A DNA stretch of 64,000 nucleotides from a virus, in the IMG/VR virus record IMGVR_UViG_3300014819_000003, positions 27,276-91,275 of that record. One strand, 5' to 3'. The position numbers and the translations under genes were made by a program. A model generated the notes under the pieces. The model was not told where the DNA came from. It ran no database searches and worked only from the letters and a program-made list of their open reading frames with translations. The number at the start of each line of letters is the position of its first letter. Position 1 is the stretch's first letter. Shown here piece by piece: positions 191 to 53,083 of this stretch.

Positions 191-574
191 ATGAGTAGTG
201 GAAAATTGCCAAAAGTTGGTAACGTCAGGCGCAAAGTTATAGAAAAAAACTACGCTTGGGGTCTTTATGTGTACAAAAAGTCCAATGGTAAGTGGTTTAC
301 CGATGGTGAGGGTAGTGTTTTAAATATTCCAGCAATGCGTGGAGACTTATCAAAGATTGCTGAACTCAAGAAGGCTGCCATGTATTATGGCGATGAAGGT
401 GACGGAGAATGTATTTTTGTACCTGGTTTAAGCAGGGTAACAGAAGAACAGTATTCAGAAATGGTAGACAGAATGAAACAAGGTCTTATTCCTAACCTCA
501 ATGATATGGGTGCTGTATACGATGCTCAACAAACCCTAAAGAAACATGGAAGGGATACGTTTGACAGTGAGTGA
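191..574 (+). CDS. Hypothetical phage protein preceding portal
   Basis: ORF 185..574; start moved to ATG 191 on promoter spacing. Confidence 0.7.
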   Translation: MSSGKLPKVGNVRRKVIEKNYAWGLYVYKKSNGKWFTDGEGSVLNIPAMRGDLSKIAELKKAAMYYGDEGDGECIFVPGLSRVTEEQYSEMVDRMKQGLIPNLNDMGAVYDAQQTLKKHGRDTFDSE

Positions 575-2168
575 AAATTTTGAATATATTCAGGCAGGTC
601 TGAATACACAACAAAAAGAACCCAATCAATTTGCAGGATTAGATCCTTTTGCAAAGTCTTGGGATGATCTTAAAGGTTTAAATGGAATTGATAACAACTT
701 CCGTCGTAGAACAACTAGAAATCTTACAAAGGTTGCATCTGAAAGTCCTGCATATTTAGAATCTGCTGGTGCTACGCCAATGGGCGACGGTAGCGGATCA
801 AAACAATTAAATGCTGGCACGGTATATAGAAACGGCTACGGATTATTTGACGTAATTACTCCACCATATAACATGTATGAGTTGGCTAACTTTTATGATA
901 CAAACTTTGCTAACCATGCTGCTATTGATGCTAAGGTAGAAAATGTTGTTGGTTTGGGATACCGTTTTGATATTACAGATCGCACAATGCTTAGTTTTGA
1001 AATGAGTGACGACGAGGGCAAGGTAGATAGAGCAAGAAATAGAATTGAACGAGCAAAAATTATGCTTCGTGACTGGCTTGAAGGTCTTAATGATGATGAC
1101 TCATTTACAACTACAATGGAAAAGGTTTATACAGATCTACAGGCTACAGGTAATGGATTTCTTGAGGTTGGTCGTAAGGTAAATGGCGAGATTGGTTATA
1201 TTGGACATATTCCAGCAACTACAGTTCGTGTTCGTCGTTTAAAAGATGGCTTCTTGCAGATTATTGGAAATAAGATTGTTTACTTCCGTAACTTTGGTGC
1301 AAGAAATGCAAACCCAGTAACTTCGGATCCAAGACCAAATGAGATTATTCATCTTAAGCAATACTCACCACTAAATACATTTTATGGCATTCCAGATATT
1401 CTTTCTGCATTACCTTCTCTAATCGGTGATCAATTAGCATCTCAATATAATATTGATTACTTTGAAAACAAGGCTGTTCCACGCTATGTTATTACAGTAA
1501 AGGGCGCTAAGTTATCTGCTGATGCTGAAGATAAGATGTTTAGATTCTTGCAGACAGGCCTAAAGGCTCAGTCTCATAGAACTCTTTATATTCCACTTCC
1601 AGGCGATAGTGAAAACAATAAAGTTGAATTTAAGATGGAGCCTATCGAAAACGGTATTCAAGAAGGATCATTTAAAGAATATCGTAAGCAAAATCGTGAT
1701 GATATTTTGATTGCTCATCAGGTTCCTATTTCTAAACTTGGTGGCTCTGATTCTGCTGCTATTGCTGCTGCGATTTCTCAGGATCGTACATTTAAAGAGC
1801 AGGTATCACGTCCAGCCCAAAGATACCTAGAAAAGATGATTAATAAGGTTGTTAAAGAAAAAACTGATGTTCTTGAGTTGAAGTTTAACGAACTAACATT
1901 AACAGACGAAATTGCACAGTCTCAGATTTTGGAACGCTATGTTAAGACTCAGGTTATGACTCCTAACGAGGCTCGTGAGAAGTTAGATCTTCCACAACGT
2001 CCAGACGGAGATAGCCCATTTGTTATGAGTCCACGTCAGGCTACTGATGCTAGGGCAGATTTGGCAGGAAATCGACAAAGAGATACCGAAAGAACAAATA
2101 ATAACTCTGATTCTCCATCCACAATTTCAGGAAGAAATCCACAGGGAGAAGGGCGTTCATCCACATAA
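546..2168 (+). CDS. Portal protein
   Basis: 540 aa; GNGFLE, EIIH, YGIP, YFENKAVP, MTPNEARE motifs typical of HK97/PBSX-type portals; precedes protease and capsid. Confidence 0.92.
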   Translation: MEGIRLTVSENFEYIQAGLNTQQKEPNQFAGLDPFAKSWDDLKGLNGIDNNFRRRTTRNLTKVASESPAYLESAGATPMGDGSGSKQLNAGTVYRNGYGLFDVITPPYNMYELANFYDTNFANHAAIDAKVENVVGLGYRFDITDRTMLSFEMSDDEGKVDRARNRIERAKIMLRDWLEGLNDDDSFTTTMEKVYTDLQATGNGFLEVGRKVNGEIGYIGHIPATTVRVRRLKDGFLQIIGNKIVYFRNFGARNANPVTSDPRPNEIIHLKQYSPLNTFYGIPDILSALPSLIGDQLASQYNIDYFENKAVPRYVITVKGAKLSADAEDKMFRFLQTGLKAQSHRTLYIPLPGDSENNKVEFKMEPIENGIQEGSFKEYRKQNRDDILIAHQVPISKLGGSDSAAIAAAISQDRTFKEQVSRPAQRYLEKMINKVVKEKTDVLELKFNELTLTDEIAQSQILERYVKTQVMTPNEAREKLDLPQRPDGDSPFVMSPRQATDARADLAGNRQRDTERTNNNSDSPSTISGRNPQGEGRSST

Positions 2169-2210: not shown

Positions 2211-3503
2211 ATGATTATAAACAAAGCACACTGGGTTACAGAAGGCGACAGCGTTCGCTTTTCTATGCCCATTGGCAAAATTGATCAGGAACGTCGTATT
2301 GTATCAGGTTTTGCAACATTAGATAACATTGATAAACAAAATGATATTGTAACTACGGAAGCAAGCATGACTGCTTTTAAAAAGTTCCGTGGCAACCTTC
2401 GTGAAATGCATCAACCCAGTGCTGTCGGTAAGGTTGTTTCTTTTAAAGAGGATCGTTACTTTGATCCAGAAACAAAGAAGTTTTATAGTGGAGTTTATGT
2501 TTCTGCATATGTTTCTAAAGGTGCACAAGATACATGGGAAAAAGTTCTTGATGGAACTTTGACTGGTTTTTCAATCGGTGGAAACATCAAAAAGTTTGAT
2601 GATGAGTTTAATGCAGATATGGATAAATCAGTGCGTATAATTAAAGAGTATGAATTGCATGAATTATCACTCGTAGATAATCCTGCTAACCAATTCGCTA
2701 ATGTTATCTCTATTGAAAAAGGACAACTCGGCGGGTATTTGGCAAAAGCAGTAGTTGATACAGTGTATTGGTGCAAACAAGACGATATTGTTCGTCTATC
2801 TCCTGAAGATAAGGAAGCATGTCCTACTTGCGATACTTCAATGTCAAACATTGGTTTTGTTGAGTCGGGCGATGACAATATTGAAACATTAAAGTTCTTA
2901 GTTGATAGTGCAAAAGGCATTAGGACAATTAAGATGACTAAGGAGGATAATCCTATGACAGAAGAAACAGAAGTTGTAGCAGAGGCACCAGCCGAAGCAG
3001 CACCAGTTGTTGAAAATGTTGAGGTTGCTCCAGAGGCTACAGCAGAAGTCGTAGCAGAAGAGGCACCAGCAGTTGCTGAAGAAGCACCTGTTGATACTGA
3101 AATTGTTAAGGCTGATGAAGTTGCTCCTTCAACAGAAGAAGTTGTAGAGAAGAAAGAAGATGTTGTTACAGATATCGCCAAAAATGTAACAGACATTAAA
3201 GACTCTCTAACTAATGCCTTGAGCAGTCTAGCAGAAACCGTTAAGTCACTTCAGGCTAACGTTGATGCAATTACAAAGTCCCTTGAAACCGTTACAGGTG
3301 AAGTTAAGTCTGTAGCAAGTGAGGTTAAAGAAGTAAAGGGTTCTTTCGATGAGTTTGGCAAGCGAGTAGATGCAGTAGAAGCAGATACCGCTTTCCGCAA
3401 GTCTGGCGATCTAGGCGAGATCGTGCAGGAGTTTTCAGAAATGAAGACTCAAAAATCCCTATGGGGCGGACGTTTCCTCACAAATGCCGACCTATTTAAG
3501 TGA
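2211..3503 (+). CDS. Prohead maturation protease fused to acidic/coiled-coil scaffold
   Basis: REMHQ..VG, GFSIGG, ELSLVDNPAN motifs of HK97-type protease; Glu/Ala/Pro-rich linker and coiled-coil C-terminus. Confidence 0.9.
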   Translation: MIINKAHWVTEGDSVRFSMPIGKIDQERRIVSGFATLDNIDKQNDIVTTEASMTAFKKFRGNLREMHQPSAVGKVVSFKEDRYFDPETKKFYSGVYVSAYVSKGAQDTWEKVLDGTLTGFSIGGNIKKFDDEFNADMDKSVRIIKEYELHELSLVDNPANQFANVISIEKGQLGGYLAKAVVDTVYWCKQDDIVRLSPEDKEACPTCDTSMSNIGFVESGDDNIETLKFLVDSAKGIRTIKMTKEDNPMTEETEVVAEAPAEAAPVVENVEVAPEATAEVVAEEAPAVAEEAPVDTEIVKADEVAPSTEEVVEKKEDVVTDIAKNVTDIKDSLTNALSSLAETVKSLQANVDAITKSLETVTGEVKSVASEVKEVKGSFDEFGKRVDAVEADTAFRKSGDLGEIVQEFSEMKTQKSLWGGRFLTNADLFK

Positions 3504-3529
3504 ACATAAACCAAATGGAGGTGAACAAT

Positions 3530-4648
3530 ATGTCGGAACAAGAACAATTAATTAAGGCTGCTGAAGCGGGTGCTTTCGTATCTGGCGGGATTGGTGGCGC
3601 AACTGCTACTGATCGTGACAGCAACGTATCTCCTGCTACTTCTCTTGGTAACGTTACTGGCGGAACTTTCGGTTCAATTACTGGACCTAACGCAGTAAAC
3701 CCAACAGGAAGTAACAGTGGTATTCTAAACCCTGAGCAGGCTCGCCGCTTTATCGACTACGTGTGGGATGCAACAGTTCTCGCCAAGGATGGTCGTAGAG
3801 TTACAATGCGAGCAAACACCATGGAAATCGAAAAGGTTAACGTGGGTGAGCGTGTAATCCGTGCTGCTGCACAAGCAGATGACGCATACACAAACGCAGG
3901 CGCAACATTTACAAAAGTAGAACTAACAACCAAAAAGATTCGTCTTGACTGGGAAGTTTCTACTGAGTCTCTAGAAGACAATATTGAAGGAGCGGCTCTT
4001 GAAGACCGTCTCGTTCGCTTGATGACCAATGCATTCGCAAATGACATTGAAGATCTAGCGATTAACGGTGATGGTGCTACAGGCAACTTCCTCTCAATCA
4101 TGTCTGGCTTTATTAAGCAAACTCGTGGTACAGTAGGCAACGCTGCTCATGAAGCAGATGTTACCGTATCTAACAACGAGTGGACTCCACAAGTAATGCA
4201 GGATATCATTCTTGCAATGCCACGTAAGTATCGTGCACTTAAGAGCAATCTTAAGTTCTATGCAGGTACTGACGCATTCCAGGGTATCGTTAAGAATAAC
4301 GGTACACTCGCTGATGCTATTGCTGAAGCGATTGCTGGACAAACACCAGGTAGCACACAGGCTAACCGTCAAGCATATCTTGATGGTCTAGGACAGACAT
4401 TCGGTGGTTCTCGTACCACCCGTGTTCTTGGAGTGGATGTACTTGAGGTTCCTTACTATCCAGCAGGATATGTAGATCTCACATTCCCTGAGAACCGTGT
4501 CTGGGGCTTCCAGCGTGATATCACGGTAAACCGTGAATACAAGCCAAAGAAGGATACTGTAGAATATACAGTTTTCGTTCGCTTTGGTATTGCATGGGAA
4601 GAGTTGGATGCAGTTGCTTATGGCGACGCAGACAGCGCAGATTCCTAA
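3530..4648 (+). CDS. Major capsid protein (HK97 fold)
   Basis: SD GGAGGTG before ATG 3530; GILNPEQARRF, LEDNIEG, AINGDG motifs; biased codon usage; followed by terminator. Confidence 0.92.
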   Translation: MSEQEQLIKAAEAGAFVSGGIGGATATDRDSNVSPATSLGNVTGGTFGSITGPNAVNPTGSNSGILNPEQARRFIDYVWDATVLAKDGRRVTMRANTMEIEKVNVGERVIRAAAQADDAYTNAGATFTKVELTTKKIRLDWEVSTESLEDNIEGAALEDRLVRLMTNAFANDIEDLAINGDGATGNFLSIMSGFIKQTRGTVGNAAHEADVTVSNNEWTPQVMQDIILAMPRKYRALKSNLKFYAGTDAFQGIVKNNGTLADAIAEAIAGQTPGSTQANRQAYLDGLGQTFGGSRTTRVLGVDVLEVPYYPAGYVDLTFPENRVWGFQRDITVNREYKPKKDTVEYTVFVRFGIAWEELDAVAYGDADSADS

Positions 4649-47060: not shown

Positions 47061-47492
47061 ATGGTAAGTTCATTTGCATTGGATCTATTTAAGGATCCAT
47101 TTTTTATTGGTTTCAACAGAGAGTTGGACCGACTTTCAAATATCCATCGTGAGGCTGTTCGTCAATCTTTTCCACCATATGATTTGGTGAAACTTGATGA
47201 GGACACCTATAGGATATCTCTTGCAGTTGCTGGTTTTAACAGCAGCGAAGTAGAGGTTTCTGTGGATAATGGAAGTTTAATTATCAAGGGTGAGAAAACC
47301 GATGAGGCTTCTACAGAAGTCTTACATAAGGGTATCGCAACCAGAAAGTTCACACGCACCTTTGCTCTTGGAGAGTATATGGAGGTTGATCGTGCTGAAA
47401 TGGCAGACGGTATTCTTAATGTCTTTGTGGAAAGAAACATTCCCGAAGAAAAGAAACCTAAAAAAATCGCAATTAAGTCTACAAAAAAGTAG
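47061..47492 (+). CDS. Small heat shock protein (Hsp20/IbpA-like)
   Basis: FPPYDL, LAVAGF, LHKGIATRKFTRTF, DGIL, PEEKKP. Confidence 0.93.
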   Translation: MVSSFALDLFKDPFFIGFNRELDRLSNIHREAVRQSFPPYDLVKLDEDTYRISLAVAGFNSSEVEVSVDNGSLIIKGEKTDEASTEVLHKGIATRKFTRTFALGEYMEVDRAEMADGILNVFVERNIPEEKKPKKIAIKSTKK

Positions 47493-47511
47493 ATAACATT
47501 TAGTTATATCA

Positions 47512-47540
47512 TTGACAATAAATGTTTTCAATGTTATAAT
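47512..47540 (+). promoter_or_regulatory. Perfect consensus sigma-A/70 promoter
   Basis: TTGACA-N17-TATAAT with extended TG. Confidence 0.85.
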
Positions 47541-47546
47541 TGATTC

Positions 47547-47622
47547 ATCCCAATGGGCAGTCTTTTTTCCTTTCTCTTCTGCCCAAGGGTACGGACACCT
47601 GAGCATGTGTATAAACTGCTCA
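47547..47622 (+). ncRNA. Candidate structured small RNA/leader: hairpin with 18-nt pyrimidine loop plus H-type pseudoknot
   Basis: TGGGCAG/CTGCCCA stem; ACAC/GTGT and TGAGCA/TGCTCA pseudoknot. Confidence 0.55.
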
Positions 47623-47639
47623 TAAATAAAGGAGTAATA

Positions 47640-47816
47640 ATGCCTAAGTATGACTACAAGTGTTCTTCTTGCGGTTCTACTATTGAGTTTGAGCGAGGTA
47701 TAGGAGAAGATAGAGAGCCATCATGCTGCTCTAATATAATGACTCGTATATGGAATTCTGTTCCAGGTGTTATGTTTAATGGTTCTGGTTTTTATTCAAC
47801 GGATAATAGAAAGTAG
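47640..47816 (+). CDS. FmdB-family zinc ribbon protein
   Basis: MPKYDYKCSSCG..FNGSGFYSTD; SD AAGGAG. Confidence 0.85.
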   Translation: MPKYDYKCSSCGSTIEFERGIGEDREPSCCSNIMTRIWNSVPGVMFNGSGFYSTDNRK

Positions 47817-47831
47817 AGATATAATTACATT

Positions 47832-48092
47832 ATGAATTCTATTGTAAAAGAGCATCCTAGCGTAAATCAAAAGGAATGGCAACTAAAGGCAGTAGATAGA
47901 TGTGATAGTTGTGGGGCACAGGCTTATGTAATGGTAAAAGGATCAACTGGAGATCTAATGTTTTGTGGTCATCATTATGAAAAAATAATGAACAATCCAG
48001 ATGCTTATACAAAGATGATGGCATTTATGCTTGAGGTTATTGATGAGCGTGAACAACTAATAGATAATAGACTGATTGGAAGTCATAACTAA
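47832..48092 (+). CDS. Actinobacterial-type zinc-binding protein
   Basis: DRCDSCGAQAYV..LMFCGHH; leaderless. Confidence 0.65.
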   Translation: MNSIVKEHPSVNQKEWQLKAVDRCDSCGAQAYVMVKGSTGDLMFCGHHYEKIMNNPDAYTKMMAFMLEVIDEREQLIDNRLIGSHN

Positions 48093-48499
48093 TGTACCAG
48101 TATTATGTAAGAGAAGTAAAAGGCGTAGTAGATGGAGATACCATCGACGTTTTAATCGATTTAGGTTTTAATGTTTTATTTGAACAGCGTGTTCGTTTGG
48201 CTGGTATTGATACGCCAGAATCTAGAACATCTGATAAGTTTGAAAAAAGTCTTGGTCTTGAAGCCAAAGAGTATCTTAAGAAACAACTTAAAGATGCTAA
48301 GTCTATTGTAATTAAAACAGAAAAGATGGATTCATCTGAAAAATATGGACGTATTTTAGGATGGTTATATGCTAATGGTGATACAGAATCTATTAATGAT
48401 AAAATGATTAATGATGGATATGCTTGGGGATATCTTGGCGAAACTAAAATTAAAGATTTTGCAGCCTTGGCAGCACAAAGAGCCAAGTCTAAAAAATGA
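48092..48499 (+). CDS. Staphylococcal-nuclease-like (SNase) protein
   Basis: VVDGDTID, RLAGIDTPE, KYGRILG. Confidence 0.88.
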   Translation: MYQYYVREVKGVVDGDTIDVLIDLGFNVLFEQRVRLAGIDTPESRTSDKFEKSLGLEAKEYLKKQLKDAKSIVIKTEKMDSSEKYGRILGWLYANGDTESINDKMINDGYAWGYLGETKIKDFAALAAQRAKSKK

Positions 48500-48750
48500 A
48501 AACAATTTACTATTTCACGGCTGATTGGTGTCAGCCTTGTAAGCGTACCCGTCCAATAGTAGAAGAACTTAATCGTGAACAAACTGAGGCGGGATTTCAA
48601 ATTATAGACGTTGATGATAACCCAGAACTTGTAAAATCTTTTAGCATACAGTCGGTGCCTACGTTTATATTAATTGATAATGGGGAAGAGATTGGCAGGA
48701 TAATAGGTGGACAGACTAAAGAGAGTTTGGAAAAATTTATTTATGAATAA
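48496..48750 (+). CDS. Thioredoxin
   Basis: WCQPC, SVPTF. Confidence 0.88.
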   Translation: MKTIYYFTADWCQPCKRTRPIVEELNREQTEAGFQIIDVDDNPELVKSFSIQSVPTFILIDNGEEIGRIIGGQTKESLEKFIYE

Positions 48751-49087: not shown

Positions 49088-50158
49088 ATGCCATATCGTG
49101 TAGGTGCTAAAGGGTCTTACGGTTGTTCTGGCTACCCTGCCCTTAAAGTGGGTACAAATGAAGTAATGGGGTGCCATGATACACGAGCACAGGCTGCTGC
49201 ACAAATTTATGCTATTAATCGAAGCGAAGGCAAAATTGGAAAAGCCATGAATGAAATCAAAGAAGGCGATTTTGTTATGGGTGCAACCACAGAAGGTTTA
49301 ATTCATGGTATGGTTGAACACATTATGACTGAGGGTGGAGTTCTTGGAACACCTGGAACTAGATATGCTCTTGAGTCAATGCCACCAGAAAATCCTGCTA
49401 TGTCTGTTAGGGTTTATAAAGAAGAAGATGGTGGTTGGGAACCTACTGCTTACAGCATTGGAATGATGTATGCAGATGCAGAAAAAATAGATATTGAGGA
49501 GCATAATATGGATGCTGAAGAAACAATGAAATCATATCATTCTGATAATGAAGATGAAGATAAATGGGATAACATTAGAAAAGAGTGTTGGGTTGGATAC
49601 GAACAGCAGGGTATGAAAGAAAAAAATGGACGTATGGTTCCAAACTGTGTTCCAGTAAAAAAATCTGATGATATTGATAAAGCAAAAAAGCCAAACTATG
49701 ATGAAATGATTAAGCCACGTCGTGGAGGATCTACACCTGCTAATCCAAGGCTCTATGCAAGAATTCAGCGTGAAGCAAAAGATAAGTTTGATGTATATCC
49801 ATCAGCAGTAGCAAATGGATGGGTAGTACAAGAATATAAGCGTCGTGGTGGAACCTATAAGAGCGATGGTATTGAAGCAGAGAAGCGTGAATTCTCTACA
49901 GCATCTCGTGAAAGAATGGCAGAGGCTGGAACTGCAATGCCAGATGGATCTTTTCCAATTGCAAATGCTAATGATCTTCGTAATGCAATTCAGTCTGTAG
50001 GTCGTGCAAAAAATTATGAGGCTGCGAAGAGACATATTATTCGTCGTGCAAGAGCACTCGGTATGACAGATATGCTTCCAGAAGATTGGCGTAACTCTAC
50101 TAAGAAGGGTGGCGATTGGGCTGGATCAGTATTTGATCTTAATCCTTTCGTAAAGTAA
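49088..50158 (+). CDS. Modular protein of small head-associated-type domains (putative capsid cargo)
   Basis: At least five short modules separated by K-S/K-A/K-E sites; C-terminal WAGSVF; leaderless. Confidence 0.6.
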   Translation: MPYRVGAKGSYGCSGYPALKVGTNEVMGCHDTRAQAAAQIYAINRSEGKIGKAMNEIKEGDFVMGATTEGLIHGMVEHIMTEGGVLGTPGTRYALESMPPENPAMSVRVYKEEDGGWEPTAYSIGMMYADAEKIDIEEHNMDAEETMKSYHSDNEDEDKWDNIRKECWVGYEQQGMKEKNGRMVPNCVPVKKSDDIDKAKKPNYDEMIKPRRGGSTPANPRLYARIQREAKDKFDVYPSAVANGWVVQEYKRRGGTYKSDGIEAEKREFSTASRERMAEAGTAMPDGSFPIANANDLRNAIQSVGRAKNYEAAKRHIIRRARALGMTDMLPEDWRNSTKKGGDWAGSVFDLNPFVK

Positions 50159-50298
50159 TGTCATCAGGAAAATATAAAAGACATGATGGTTTTAATCCAG
50201 TTCAGATTAAAGATGGAAACATTGTTCGTCTTCGTAAAGATGGAACAGTAAAAGCAATTCTTGGAAAATACGGGGAGTATAAGAAAAATGACAAATAA
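50158..50298 (+). CDS. Small basic protein (46 aa, not in ORF track)
   Basis: MSSGKYKRHDGFNPVQIKDGNIVRLRKDGTVKAILG..; TAATG coupling. Confidence 0.6.
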   Translation: MSSGKYKRHDGFNPVQIKDGNIVRLRKDGTVKAILGKYGEYKKNDK

Positions 50299-50689
50299 CA
50301 TTAAGGTTGTACAGCCATCAGACATACATAAAGAAGAAACATATACACCAACTTCAGGTATGAAATCTGCTGCTCGCCGTGCTCTTCGTTGGAAAGAAGA
50401 AGGCAAGGCAAAAGGTGCAGGAACTCCAGTAGGTTGGGGTCGTGCAACAGATATTGTAGCGGGTAGATCAATGTCTCTCTCTACAGTAAAAAGAATGTAC
50501 TCTTTCTTTTCTCGTCATGAAGTTGACAAAAAAGGAAAAGACTTCTATAATAATAGTAACCCTTCCAATGGTCGCATCATGTGGGATGCATGGGGAGGAG
50601 ACGCAGGATTTTCTTGGTCACGTAAAATTGTAGAACGTGAAAAGAATCGTGCACAAAAGGCTTGGGAAGGCAGCGCATTTAATCGCTAG
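50288..50689 (+). CDS. Head-associated-type domain protein (putative capsid cargo)
   Basis: PTSGMKSAARRAL..TVKRMYSFFSRHE..WGGDAG; C-terminal KAWEGSAF. Confidence 0.65.
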   Translation: MTNNIKVVQPSDIHKEETYTPTSGMKSAARRALRWKEEGKAKGAGTPVGWGRATDIVAGRSMSLSTVKRMYSFFSRHEVDKKGKDFYNNSNPSNGRIMWDAWGGDAGFSWSRKIVEREKNRAQKAWEGSAFNR

Positions 50690-51625: not shown

Positions 51626-52588
51626 ATGACACAACAAGATCCAAGATTTTTTTGCTACAAAGAAGAATACTTTGGTGGCACAGAATATATGGCTAGATAT
51701 TTTCATAAAAATGTAGCCCCATTTTTGCCACAACTAAAACAATACAACTGTTTAATTTTGCCAGGGCAAACAGATAAACCATATGCTGAATTGATATACG
51801 AACCAAAAGAAATTATTATATGGCTACATAATCTAGTAGATCAATTTGGTTTTCAACTTTATCATCTTTTTACAGATAAAAGATTTATAGATAAAATCAA
51901 ATACATAATTACTGTATCTGAATATCATAGACAAGACGTTATTAACAAGACTGGTATTGATCCAAACAAAGTTATTGTTATCTATAACGCTATTGATCCT
52001 ATTGAAAATGATCTTTCAAGGTTTGAAAATGTAGATGTTCCACAACTCATATACACATCTTCGCCAGGACGAGGGTTGGAAATAGGTTTAACTGCACTAT
52101 CCAAATTAGATATTGAATTTAGACTTAGTATTTTCAATGAAATAGTTCCAGACCTAGTAAGAATAGATGATGGCAATAGAAAAATACTAGAAGATCCACG
52201 TTTCTTTTTCTATGGTAAAACCCCGCATAAAACAGTTCTAGATCATATGTCACGTTCGCATATCTTCATGCATACAAGTAATTGGCATGAAACGTTCTGC
52301 TTGTCTCTTGTAGAGGGCCTAAGTGCTAACTGTTTGTCTGTATACAGTACTTTTGGATCTTTAGGGGAAGTAGGATCTGGATTTGGTTTGCCATACGATA
52401 TAGAAAATAATACACAAAAAGATATAGAAAAGCATGTACAAGTTTTTTCTAATAAGATTACTAAAGCAATTGAAATGATCAAAAAGGGAGATTTTGATCC
52501 AGGTAATCAAGCAGAAACTATAAATAATAAGTTTTCTTGGGATAACTTTAAAAATGCTTGGATTGATTTTTATGAAAAGAGAATATAA
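51626..52588 (+). CDS. Glycosyltransferase GT-B (GT4-like)
   Basis: GGTE, WLHN, VSEYH, YTSSPGRGL, ETFCLSLVE. Confidence 0.85.
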   Translation: MTQQDPRFFCYKEEYFGGTEYMARYFHKNVAPFLPQLKQYNCLILPGQTDKPYAELIYEPKEIIIWLHNLVDQFGFQLYHLFTDKRFIDKIKYIITVSEYHRQDVINKTGIDPNKVIVIYNAIDPIENDLSRFENVDVPQLIYTSSPGRGLEIGLTALSKLDIEFRLSIFNEIVPDLVRIDDGNRKILEDPRFFFYGKTPHKTVLDHMSRSHIFMHTSNWHETFCLSLVEGLSANCLSVYSTFGSLGEVGSGFGLPYDIENNTQKDIEKHVQVFSNKITKAIEMIKKGDFDPGNQAETINNKFSWDNFKNAWIDFYEKRI

Positions 52589-52798
52589 GTGATTATAAAA
52601 GATTTAAATCAAATGGAAAAAATAGTTTCCAAAAACAAAAACCTAAATTGGGTTGGTTGGGATATTGCAGATCGTCGTCGTACAGAGGCTGGCAGAACTG
52701 CTATTAACGGTGTTAGAGTAGATGGTCAATGGTACGTCCAGACAATTTATCCACTTACTAGCAACGGATGGGATTTACCGAATAAGTATAGGATGTAA
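52589..52798 (+). CDS. Hypothetical protein
   Basis: ORF coupled between GT and WhiB. Confidence 0.6.
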   Translation: MIIKDLNQMEKIVSKNKNLNWVGWDIADRRRTEAGRTAINGVRVDGQWYVQTIYPLTSNGWDLPNKYRM

Positions 52799-52801
52799 GC
52801 C

Positions 52802-53083
52802 ATGAAGCAGCACCTCTGGAAAGATGATGCTTTGTGTCTAGGATCAGATACAAATATATTCTTTGATGTATATGAAGAAAAAACAGATACAAGAGAGTTT
52901 GTTGATTCTCTTTGTCGTACCTGCCCAGTAGCAAGACAATGTTTTGCTGTTGGTGTCTCTGGTAAAGAGTGGGGCATATGGGGCGGGGTATATTTAGAAG
53001 AAGGCGAAATATCAAAAGAATTTAATAATCATAAGACTAAACAAGATTGGTCTTATACTTGGCAAGCATTAACGATGGGATAG
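52802..53083 (+). CDS. whiB: WhiB-family Fe-S transcription factor
   Basis: W..ALC..FF..CRTCPV..C..GIWGG. Confidence 0.9.
   Translation: MKQHLWKDDALCLGSDTNIFFDVYEEKTDTREFVDSLCRTCPVARQCFAVGVSGKEWGIWGGVYLEEGEISKEFNNHKTKQDWSYTWQALTMG

Follow-up and report, generated by a model that had tools for sequence, protein, structure and literature searches.

The DNA analysed here (the window) is a stretch of 64,000 nucleotides from an uncultured lake phage, corresponding to bases 27276-91275 of the 91-kb IMG/VR record IMGVR_UViG_3300014819_000003 (36% G+C; completeness estimate 84%). Its head module encodes, in this order, a portal, a prohead protease fused to a scaffold (hereafter the protease-scaffold, or simply the scaffold) and an HK97-fold major capsid protein. 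Far downstream lies a cassette with two further genes, which we name by their first base as open reading frame (ORF) 49088 and ORF 50288. The proteins encoded by both genes end in a short peptide that is also found at the C-terminus of the scaffold, and this shared tail, called the tag below, is the subject of the present report. The coordinates of all features are collected in Table 1.

A C-terminal peptide common to the scaffold and two distal proteins

The original prediction, made from the DNA sequence, held that the three C-termini share the pattern K-x(1-3)-W-x-G-x(1-2)-F, and the sequences are as it described: the scaffold ends in ...QKSLWGGRFLTNADLFK, ORF 49088 in ...KKGGDWAGSVFDLNPFVK and ORF 50288, also when read from the earlier start at 50261, in ...QKAWEGSAFNR. 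In a greedy set of 124 genes covering the whole 91-kb record, the pattern W.G.{1,2}F occurred six times. Three of these occurrences were located 13 residues or less from the end of the protein, and they belonged exactly to the scaffold, ORF 49088 (49088-50158) and ORF 50288 (50288-50689). Likewise, these were the only three proteins of the record with W-x-G-x(1-2)-F in their last 15 residues. When random 15-residue tails were generated from each protein's own composition, three or more motif-bearing tails arose in 1 of 5000 trials, a P value that is optimistic given that the motif was defined post hoc. Because the motif was defined after seeing the data, it is its conservation that carries the argument.

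The comparison covered about 240 related IMG/VR loci, collected by homology to the scaffold, ORF 49088 and ORF 50288, together with the whole related records G001, G002, G005, G006 and G007. Among the 5269 complete ORFs of these loci, 315 carried the strict C-terminal motif and 313 of the 315 were homologues of the three proteins, a count that is partly circular because the loci had been collected by homology to those same proteins. In G005 and G002 all three tagged genes were present at equivalent syntenic positions, and in G001 the ORF 49088 homologue ended in a variant tail only (W-E-N-S-A-F). Throughout the whole related genomes, the tag was found on the scaffold and on syntenic cassette genes, the only other strict motif carriers being two short, chance-like ORFs of 48 and 69 amino acids.

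The tail of the scaffold was nearly invariant (KS[LV]WGGRFL[TK]xxDL[FL]x). K-S-L-W-G-G-R-F-L and D-L-F were present in 100% of 22 distinct relatives' tails, and one L-to-V change was seen in homologues that were 57-67% identical overall. In Streptomyces phage Bordeaux, gp49 ends in SKWGGHFLSVSDIK, and its central scaffold region could not be aligned; the tail is thus conserved across deep divergence, as a capsid-docking peptide would be. The family of ORF 49088 presented the tail consensus K-[ST]-I-W-[SDG]-G-S-[IFL]-F-D-L-N-P-F-x-K, in which the distance from W to the end was usually 13 residues, the same as in the scaffold. In an unanchored MAFFT alignment of 27 homologues of ORF 49088 (58-86% identical), W344, G346, D350 and F354 were invariant and S347 and K356 were conserved in at least 90%, while the linker preceding the tag varied. 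Tails of the ORF 50288 family read K-[AV]-W-[EQ]-G-S-A-F followed by 2-5 residues, and in 71 distinct tails, counting from W, K at -2 was found in 94%, G at +2 in 88%, S at +3 in 85% and F at +5 in 98%. A Lys precedes W by 2-5 residues in nearly all tags. Altogether, this conservation indicates that the three proteins genuinely share an end peptide and that selection maintains it.

The tag also moved between proteins. Across the 302 relatives of the two distal genes that end in it, the tag was preceded by at least seven distinct upstream modules: the module directly before it was the F domain of ORF 50288 in 131 cases, DUF5872 (module D in Table 1) in 68, the DGSFPI module (module E) in 50, X2 in 8, X1 in 7, a TUDOR-like module in 3, a Cys module in 2 and another module in 2. 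Since the tag lies behind many modules and is conserved while the linker varies, we regard it as an independent, portable C-terminal unit rather than the edge of a domain or the product of a constraint at the DNA level.

Table 1. Coordinates of the head genes, the tagged cassette and their parts, numbered from the first base of the window (a slash marks a candidate cut)
Feature	Position	Strand	Remarks
Portal	546-2168		First gene of head module
Prohead protease-scaffold fusion, 430 amino acids	2211..3503	+	N-terminal S78 protease, acidic coiled-coil scaffold, C-terminal tail
Scaffold C-terminal tail KSLWGGRFLTNADLFK	3453..3500	+	Reference copy of the tag
HK97-fold major capsid protein	3500..4648	+	Pfam Phage_capsid; phrog_1623, E-value 1e-71; presumed tail receptor
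Candidate capsid N-terminal cut site LIK/A	3548-3559	+
Tagged modular protein (ORF 49088), 356 amino acids	49088..50158	+	Five small modules (A-E), disordered linkers
Module A, residues 1-53	49088..49246	+	Small Cys/His module; ends at junction IGK/A
Module B, residues 54-142	49247..49513	+	Beta-rich, divergent Hva1_TUDOR-like
Module C, residues 166-192	49583..49663	+	Cys hairpin CW.GY...VPNCVP; phrog_9737, phrog_727, phrog_36547, phrog_4359
Module D, residues 200-260	49685..49867	+	DUF5872 (PF19197, E-value 5.8e-7, above cut-off); ends KRRGGTYK/S
Module E, residues 270-339	49895..50104	+	Basic helical, DGSFPI...GRA...LPEDW
ORF 49088 C-terminal tag KKGGDWAGSVFDLNPFVK	50102..50155	+	Disordered in AlphaFold2 model
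Small untagged ORF, 46 amino acids	50158..50298	+	Between the tagged genes, overlapping both ends
Tagged single-domain protein (ORF 50288)	50288..50689	+	Helical F domain and tail; phrog_2859, E-value 3.9e-32
ORF 50288 C-terminal tag KAWEGSAFNR	50657..50686	+	Low-confidence tail in AlphaFold2 model

Modules, candidate cleavage sites and related head proteins

The gene that carries the reference copy of the tag matched phrog_9427 (head maturation protease, E-value 1.6e-119) and the Pfam families PF04586 (Peptidase_S78; 30.2 bits, cut-off 21) and PF14550 (S78_2; 26.1 bits, cut-off 24), and its residues 300-410 gave weak matches to coiled-coil families. With an N-terminal S78 domain, an acidic, coiled-coil C-terminal half and a gene located between those of the portal and the major capsid protein, it belongs to the S78 proteases fused to a scaffold. 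The closest cultured relatives of its protease half (residues 1-230) were the capsid maturation proteases of the Streptomyces BE cluster, with 57-59% identity. The true start of the adjoining capsid protein is likely the ATG at 3530.

ORF 49088 had been described as a string of small modules separated by hydrophobic-x-K-[S/A/G] sites, and its AlphaFold2 (AF2) model agreed with this description. The model resembled beads on a string, with a predicted local distance difference test score (pLDDT) below 50 at residues 50-53, 142-165, 193-199, 261-269 and 340-356. Residues G12, C13, G15, P17, G28, C29, H30 and K52 of module A were invariant in the 27 homologues, and some homologues of ORF 49088 began at residue 54. 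Module B matched, by BLASTP (E-value 1e-6), residues 139-216 of the head polyprotein of Roseobacter phage CRP-811, which form the Hva1_TUDOR region there, and module C had tblastn matches in cyanophages and haloviruses; as isolated modules, A, B and C gave no Pfam match. Module E matched profile positions 547-586 of 607 of phrog_80, a head maturation protease, and no Pfam model. Moreover, the region containing it (residues 266-342) was 56% identical to the C-terminus of Orf19 of Gordonia phage GMA6, and the module was found in 4498 representative clusters (E-value of 0.001 or less) with one to three copies per protein. Among relatives of ORF 49088, modules were gained, lost, swapped and also fused across both cassette genes, and the tag remained terminal. 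As a separate observation, many relatives (e.g. L087, L107 and L110) contained an extra Cys-rich, zinc-ribbon-like insert, CGCPTCKELNV.C.NCPVC, between modules B and C. It followed [ML]-[DGS]-K, in the alignment columns that correspond to residues 142-165 of ORF 49088.

The scaffold, too, had been said to be studded with hydrophobic-x-K-[S/A/G] sites, and the counts bore this out. Given the genome-wide rate of 0.49 per 100 amino acids, 2.1 copies of [ILVFMT].K[SAG] were expected in the scaffold and 10 were found (4.7-fold; Poisson P 8e-5); ORF 49088 contained 6 against 1.8 expected (3.4-fold; P 0.009). All six sites of ORF 49088 were in, or at the edge of, the low-confidence linkers of its AF2 model. 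At every module junction in the 27 homologues the sequence was hydrophobic-[DGNE]-K followed by A, S, G, R or E, as in IGK/A, IDK/A, MDK/R, MDK/E (before the zinc-ribbon insert) and ATK/G (before the tag). The capsid protein provided a further candidate: its N-terminal motif MSEQE..[LI][IV]K-[AN] was kept in relatives, with the Lys site about nine residues past the likely start and variable sequence downstream. Cleavage after Lys is known from HK97, where gp5 is cut at K103/S104, and the candidate Lys sites described here fit this specificity. It is therefore plausible, from the sequences, that a protease releases domains from ORF 49088.

ORF 50288 encodes 133 amino acids from the ATG at 50288, or 142 from a TTG at 50261. 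The former is most likely the start of this gene, as several relatives begin there. Its F domain was all-helical in the AF2 model (pLDDT 84). A Foldseek search against the PDB gave no match to this fold at an E-value of 0.001 or less, and the best Z of a wide VIA-align search, 4.8, was within the noise range for helical proteins. For the F domain the Atlas suggested DUF6321, a lead at most given the score of 0.86. The phrog_2859 F domain was present in more than 5000 longer proteins.

The same modules were found as covalent parts of head proteins in other phages. In Roseobacter phage CRP-811 and Synechococcus phage S-CBS1, one polypeptide comprised an F domain, Hva1_TUDOR, an S78 protease and a capsid protein, in that order. 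Limnohabitans phage DC31 has what we take, reading its translated sequence by eye, to be an F domain fused to an XkdF-like protease. In Vibrio phage 1.123.O an F-domain gene was located between a MuF-like gene and the protease-scaffold gene. Of the top 50 structural matches to the F-domain model in BFVD, 15 were named prohead protease, XkdF, portal or capsid, and others were fusions with ParB, Dps or HAD. Usable virion proteomics for phages with these modules (S-CBS1/4, GMA6, Stanwilliamsviridae) were not found in the literature. Separately, we observed an F domain near the N-terminus of a 603-residue protein of Actinomycetia phage DSL-LC01 (L268:3267-5078) annotated as a capsid maturation protease, whose gene is immediately followed by a second, S78-containing protease gene and preceded by that of a 3289-residue protein.

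Tails of other types were also detected. Some relatives of ORF 50288, as well as other modules, carried K-x-[LI]-F-x-x-F-G...[IV]-F-K-D in place of the W tail. In GMA6, the protease-scaffold Orf19, encoded directly upstream of the capsid gene, contains module E and then the terminal sequence ...RKSLFAEFGIEV; because Orf19 ends in the K-x-L-F-x-x-F-G type, this second tail type is also tied to a scaffold terminus. A search of the GMA6 coding strand with a degenerate DNA pattern for F-x-[DE]-F-G returned Orf19 only, and thus no second carrier of the GMA6/DalanDe scaffold tail. The idea that this tail replaces the W tail in particular lineages was ruled out, both types being present in one genome (L090). 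Examples of second-type carriers were L090:1582-2079, L223:1898-3112 and L278:1328-2782, the last being GMA6 Orf19, whose terminus of this type reads KSLFAEFGIEV. A similar internal sequence, GSFDEFGKRVD, is located in the scaffold of the window at 3345-3377, about 50 residues ahead of the end. A third, acidic tail type (..[FL]..SLMEFE[IL]L..E..) was observed after module E in other lineages (P0129, P0131, P0140, P0148 and P0153), and the tails that follow this module are therefore perhaps matched to the capsid lineage.

A capsid-loading interpretation and its alternatives

We favour, at somewhat better than even odds, the interpretation that the tail is a scaffold-mimicking tag for loading into the capsid, and that the polyprotein bearing it is cut after Lys by the head protease. 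On this view, ORF 49088 and ORF 50288 would reproduce, in their last 10-18 residues, the C-terminal peptide with which the phage's protease-scaffold would bind the capsid. During procapsid assembly the peptide would occupy the docking site of the scaffold tail on the inward side of the HK97-fold capsid protein, and a sub-stoichiometric number of modular proteins would thereby be enclosed. The co-packaged S78 protease would then degrade the scaffold and, judging from the position and conservation of the sites, cut the cargo after Lys at the hydrophobic-x-Lys junctions, which would free the small domains and detach them from the shell. Once free, the domains may stay beside the DNA inside the head, to serve as internal head proteins or to be delivered to the next host; this step, and injection into the next host in particular, is speculative.

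We consider capsid loading the best reading because the sole other carrier of the tag is the protease-scaffold, and in studied phages the scaffold C-terminus binds the coat (PMC5644958); because other phages carry these modules within the chains of their head proteins; and because the scaffold of GMA6, Orf19, ends in module E and the second tail type. The packaging tag of the original prediction was therefore upheld in part: the tail is portable between unrelated modules and common to a bona fide S78 protease-scaffold, but many close relatives of the cargo lack it.

Several observations weigh against capsid loading. The cassette is 46 kb from the head genes and among non-structural genes. Its neighbours include a thermonuclease gene (annotated by tblastn) and, at 47061-48750 and 51626-53083, genes that by eye we take to encode Hsp20-like, FmdB-type zinc ribbon, thioredoxin, glycosyltransferase and WhiB-like proteins, so that the surroundings look like an accessory-gene region and not a structural one. 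A perfect TTGACA-17-TATAAT is present at 47512-47540, upstream of the operon that holds the cassette. Late expression is thus not evident, the cassette being among non-structural genes and downstream of a consensus sigma-70-like promoter. Merely one or two tagged cassette genes were found per genome, and the specificity count given above is partly circular. In 70 of the 120 best longer F-domain proteins the chain continued past the F domain without a C-terminal tag, most of them ending in TUDOR, and module E was often internal, or terminal without a tail. G006, with the same scaffold tail, has a single 404-residue A-C-B-F-TUDOR fusion that lacks a C-terminal tag of the W type and contains an internal motif of the second type, KALFANFGKDWTTSESLTDIFK. 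The stand-alone F-domain protein of Vibrio phage 1.123.O has a tail unlike that of its scaffold. Within the clade, the scaffold tail (KSLWGGRFL) is invariant and so offers no variation that the cargo tails could follow. Finally, a replicate was sought in the cultured Streptomyces BE-cluster phages, whose scaffold tail is the same. Gene 156 of Streptomyces phage Bordeaux, the sole other Bordeaux ORF with a C-terminal W.G..F (...KGDGSWVGDLFEGIGDFFSDLIP), was discarded as such a replicate and taken for a chance match, since its W was not conserved in BoomerJR, Enygma and Bmoc.

Some of these observations could also be explained if the tail bound a different common partner, such as the portal, a host chaperone or protease, or the protease domain, and served the regulation or folding of the scaffold and the cassette proteins without enclosure. 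A short, disordered peptide with aromatic residues is of a type that many partners could bind; the cassette has non-structural neighbours and a consensus sigma-70-like promoter ahead of it; and some relatives manage without the tag. We nevertheless find this unlikely: in four genomes the tag has just one carrier outside the cassette, the protease-scaffold; in studied phages it is with its C-terminus that the scaffold binds the coat (PMC5644958); and the modules to which the tag is attached recur in fusions with proteins destined for the interior of the prohead.

It is rather improbable that the tail and the Lys sites constitute only a processing signal for a phage or host protease, with the proteins being matured or destroyed in the cytoplasm and never packaged. 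The enrichment of Lys sites in the scaffold and ORF 49088, their location at linkers and the Lys 2-5 residues ahead of W in nearly all tags would agree with such a signal. However, S78 proteases are, to judge from HK97 and T4, activated inside the procapsid, and a processing signal explains neither the extreme C-terminal position of the tag, with its fixed distance to the end, nor the in-cis fusion of the same modules to head proteins elsewhere.

Little probability remains for the tail as an evolutionary leftover, according to which the cassette was recombined from pieces of a protease-scaffold (module E and tail, compare GMA6 Orf19) and encodes cytoplasmic proteins with no loading role. A leftover should decay, yet four tag positions are invariant across homologues 58-86% identical, and the tag persists where module E has been lost, having become joined to seven other modules. 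Its appeal lies in module E plus tail forming the C-terminus of Gordonia phage protease-scaffolds, and in module E itself being widespread (the 4498 clusters mentioned above), freely shuffled and often without a tail. A chance resemblance of the three tails, for which it can be said that the motif is short and was defined post hoc, is very improbable and effectively refuted by conservation in hundreds of relatives (313 of 315 tagged ORFs being homologous to the three proteins), besides the single shuffle in 5000 that gave three tagged tails.

The capsid-loading interpretation may apply beyond the window, a generalisation that we advance tentatively and at slightly less than even odds. In tailed phages with a fused S78 protease-scaffold, an exchangeable C-terminal label copied from the scaffold, together with Lys junctions, would load a variable polyprotein of small domains and have it cut inside the capsid. 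The tail types (W-G-S-F, L-F-x-x-F-G and acidic SLMEFEIL) would be matched to capsid lineages, and the system as a whole would be a phage counterpart of encapsulin loading.

Relation to known systems and surroundings of the cassette

Among the closest known systems is the sharing of a scaffold tail between Staphylococcus phage 80alpha and SaPI1, in which the 80alpha scaffold and the SaPI1 protein CpmB have in common a 16-residue C-terminal helix-and-hook (RIIK motif) that binds the same capsid-protein site (PMC5644958). As in the window, a peptide of about 16 residues that forms the very end of the scaffold, with Lys as its last residue, recurs at the extreme C-terminus of a second, otherwise dissimilar protein, and the capsid protein has the HK97 fold. 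No homology to the RIIK motif or the helix-and-hook described in that work (PMC5644958) was found in the KSLWGGRFL..DLFK, W.GS.FDLNPFVK and KAWEGSAF tails. Moreover, CpmB is encoded by a satellite and serves as an alternative scaffold through which the capsid changes its size, not as cargo, whereas the copies in the window, known from sequence, are the phage's own and are carried by strings of small globular modules.

In HK97, the C-terminus of the gp4 protease is reportedly a capsid-targeting signal that can carry foreign proteins, a finding said to come from Duda, Oh and Hendrix in 2013. There, too, the protease is of the S78 family and, as proposed here, a C-terminal segment directs a protein into the procapsid. 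Unlike in the window, the HK97 signal is known only on the protease, and a delta domain of the capsid protein takes the place of a separate scaffold; we know of no description of a natural second set of tagged proteins in HK97.

Encapsulins offer a further parallel, in that diverse cargo needs no more than a short, disordered C-terminal peptide to be positioned against the inside of an HK97-fold shell. The analogy with encapsulin cargo peptides that the original prediction had drawn concerns the mechanism only, namely a C-terminal disordered peptide on diverse proteins, and includes no sequence relationship. Encapsulins have no portal, DNA or protease processing, whereas the window has genes for a portal and an S78 protease, its shell is a true phage capsid built of the encoded capsid protein, and its peptide is common to the scaffold.

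In T4 (IPI-III, Alt) and P1 (DarB), a short transferable peptide at the N-terminus loads non-structural proteins into the prohead, and in T4 this targeting peptide is then cleaved off by the prohead protease and the proteins pass into the host together with the DNA (PMC9024508). The shared peptide described here is not such an N-terminal leader of about 10 residues: it stands at the C-terminus, where it mimics the tail of the scaffold itself, and no relationship exists among the three N-termini. In addition, T4 uses an S77 protease, which cuts after Glu, and its proteins are loaded onto a scaffold core, whereas the candidate sites of the window are at Lys.

The polyvalent proteins of phages and conjugative elements, surveyed by Iyer, Burroughs, Anand, de Souza and Aravind (2017, PMC5512222), are chains of small unrelated domains for which packaging in the virion, processing by a protease and delivery to the host are predicted. 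ORF 49088, with five modules in one polypeptide, resembles them, while ORF 50288 has one; F-domain relatives likewise occur in one chain with ParB, Dps or HAD domains, or with a portal. Unlike polyvalent proteins, the two window proteins are small (133 and 356 amino acids) and do not adjoin virion genes, and Pfam detected in them none of the signature domains MuF, zincin-like metallopeptidase (MPTase), ART, DarA-N and DdrB-ParB. The passages of the survey that were searched contained no C-terminal scaffold-like tag (PMC5512222).

Thus, capsid-targeting peptides (T4, P1, the HK97 protease, encapsulins) and the sharing of scaffold tails (80alpha/SaPI1) were known already, and what appears to be new is the combination seen here: in the literature we found no described system that joins a phage-encoded C-terminal copy of the scaffold tail, polyproteins of shuffled small modules and Lys junctions in a phage with an S78 protease-scaffold. 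If the capsid-loading interpretation is true, it would bear on how HK97-type phages, besides T4 and P1, select non-structural proteins for the capsid: a sequence rule (a scaffold-like C-terminal tail plus hydrophobic-x-Lys junctions) would predict packaged, and possibly injected, proteins in many uncultured freshwater phages, and the S78 protease of these phages would have a cleavage specificity open to testing. On the same condition, the tail, some 15 residues long, could be used for loading proteins into HK97-fold capsids. For the common modules DUF5872, Hva1_TUDOR-like, DGSFPI and the phrog_2859 F domain, a role inside the capsid is suggested.

With regard to the rest of the cassette, the 46-residue ORF between the tagged genes had no family match in Pfam or PHROG and carries no tag. 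PADLOC defence models gave no match. A similar ORF of 52 amino acids was present at the equivalent place in G005. A second perfect TTGACA-17-TATAAT was found at 50523-50551, within the 3' end of ORF 50288.

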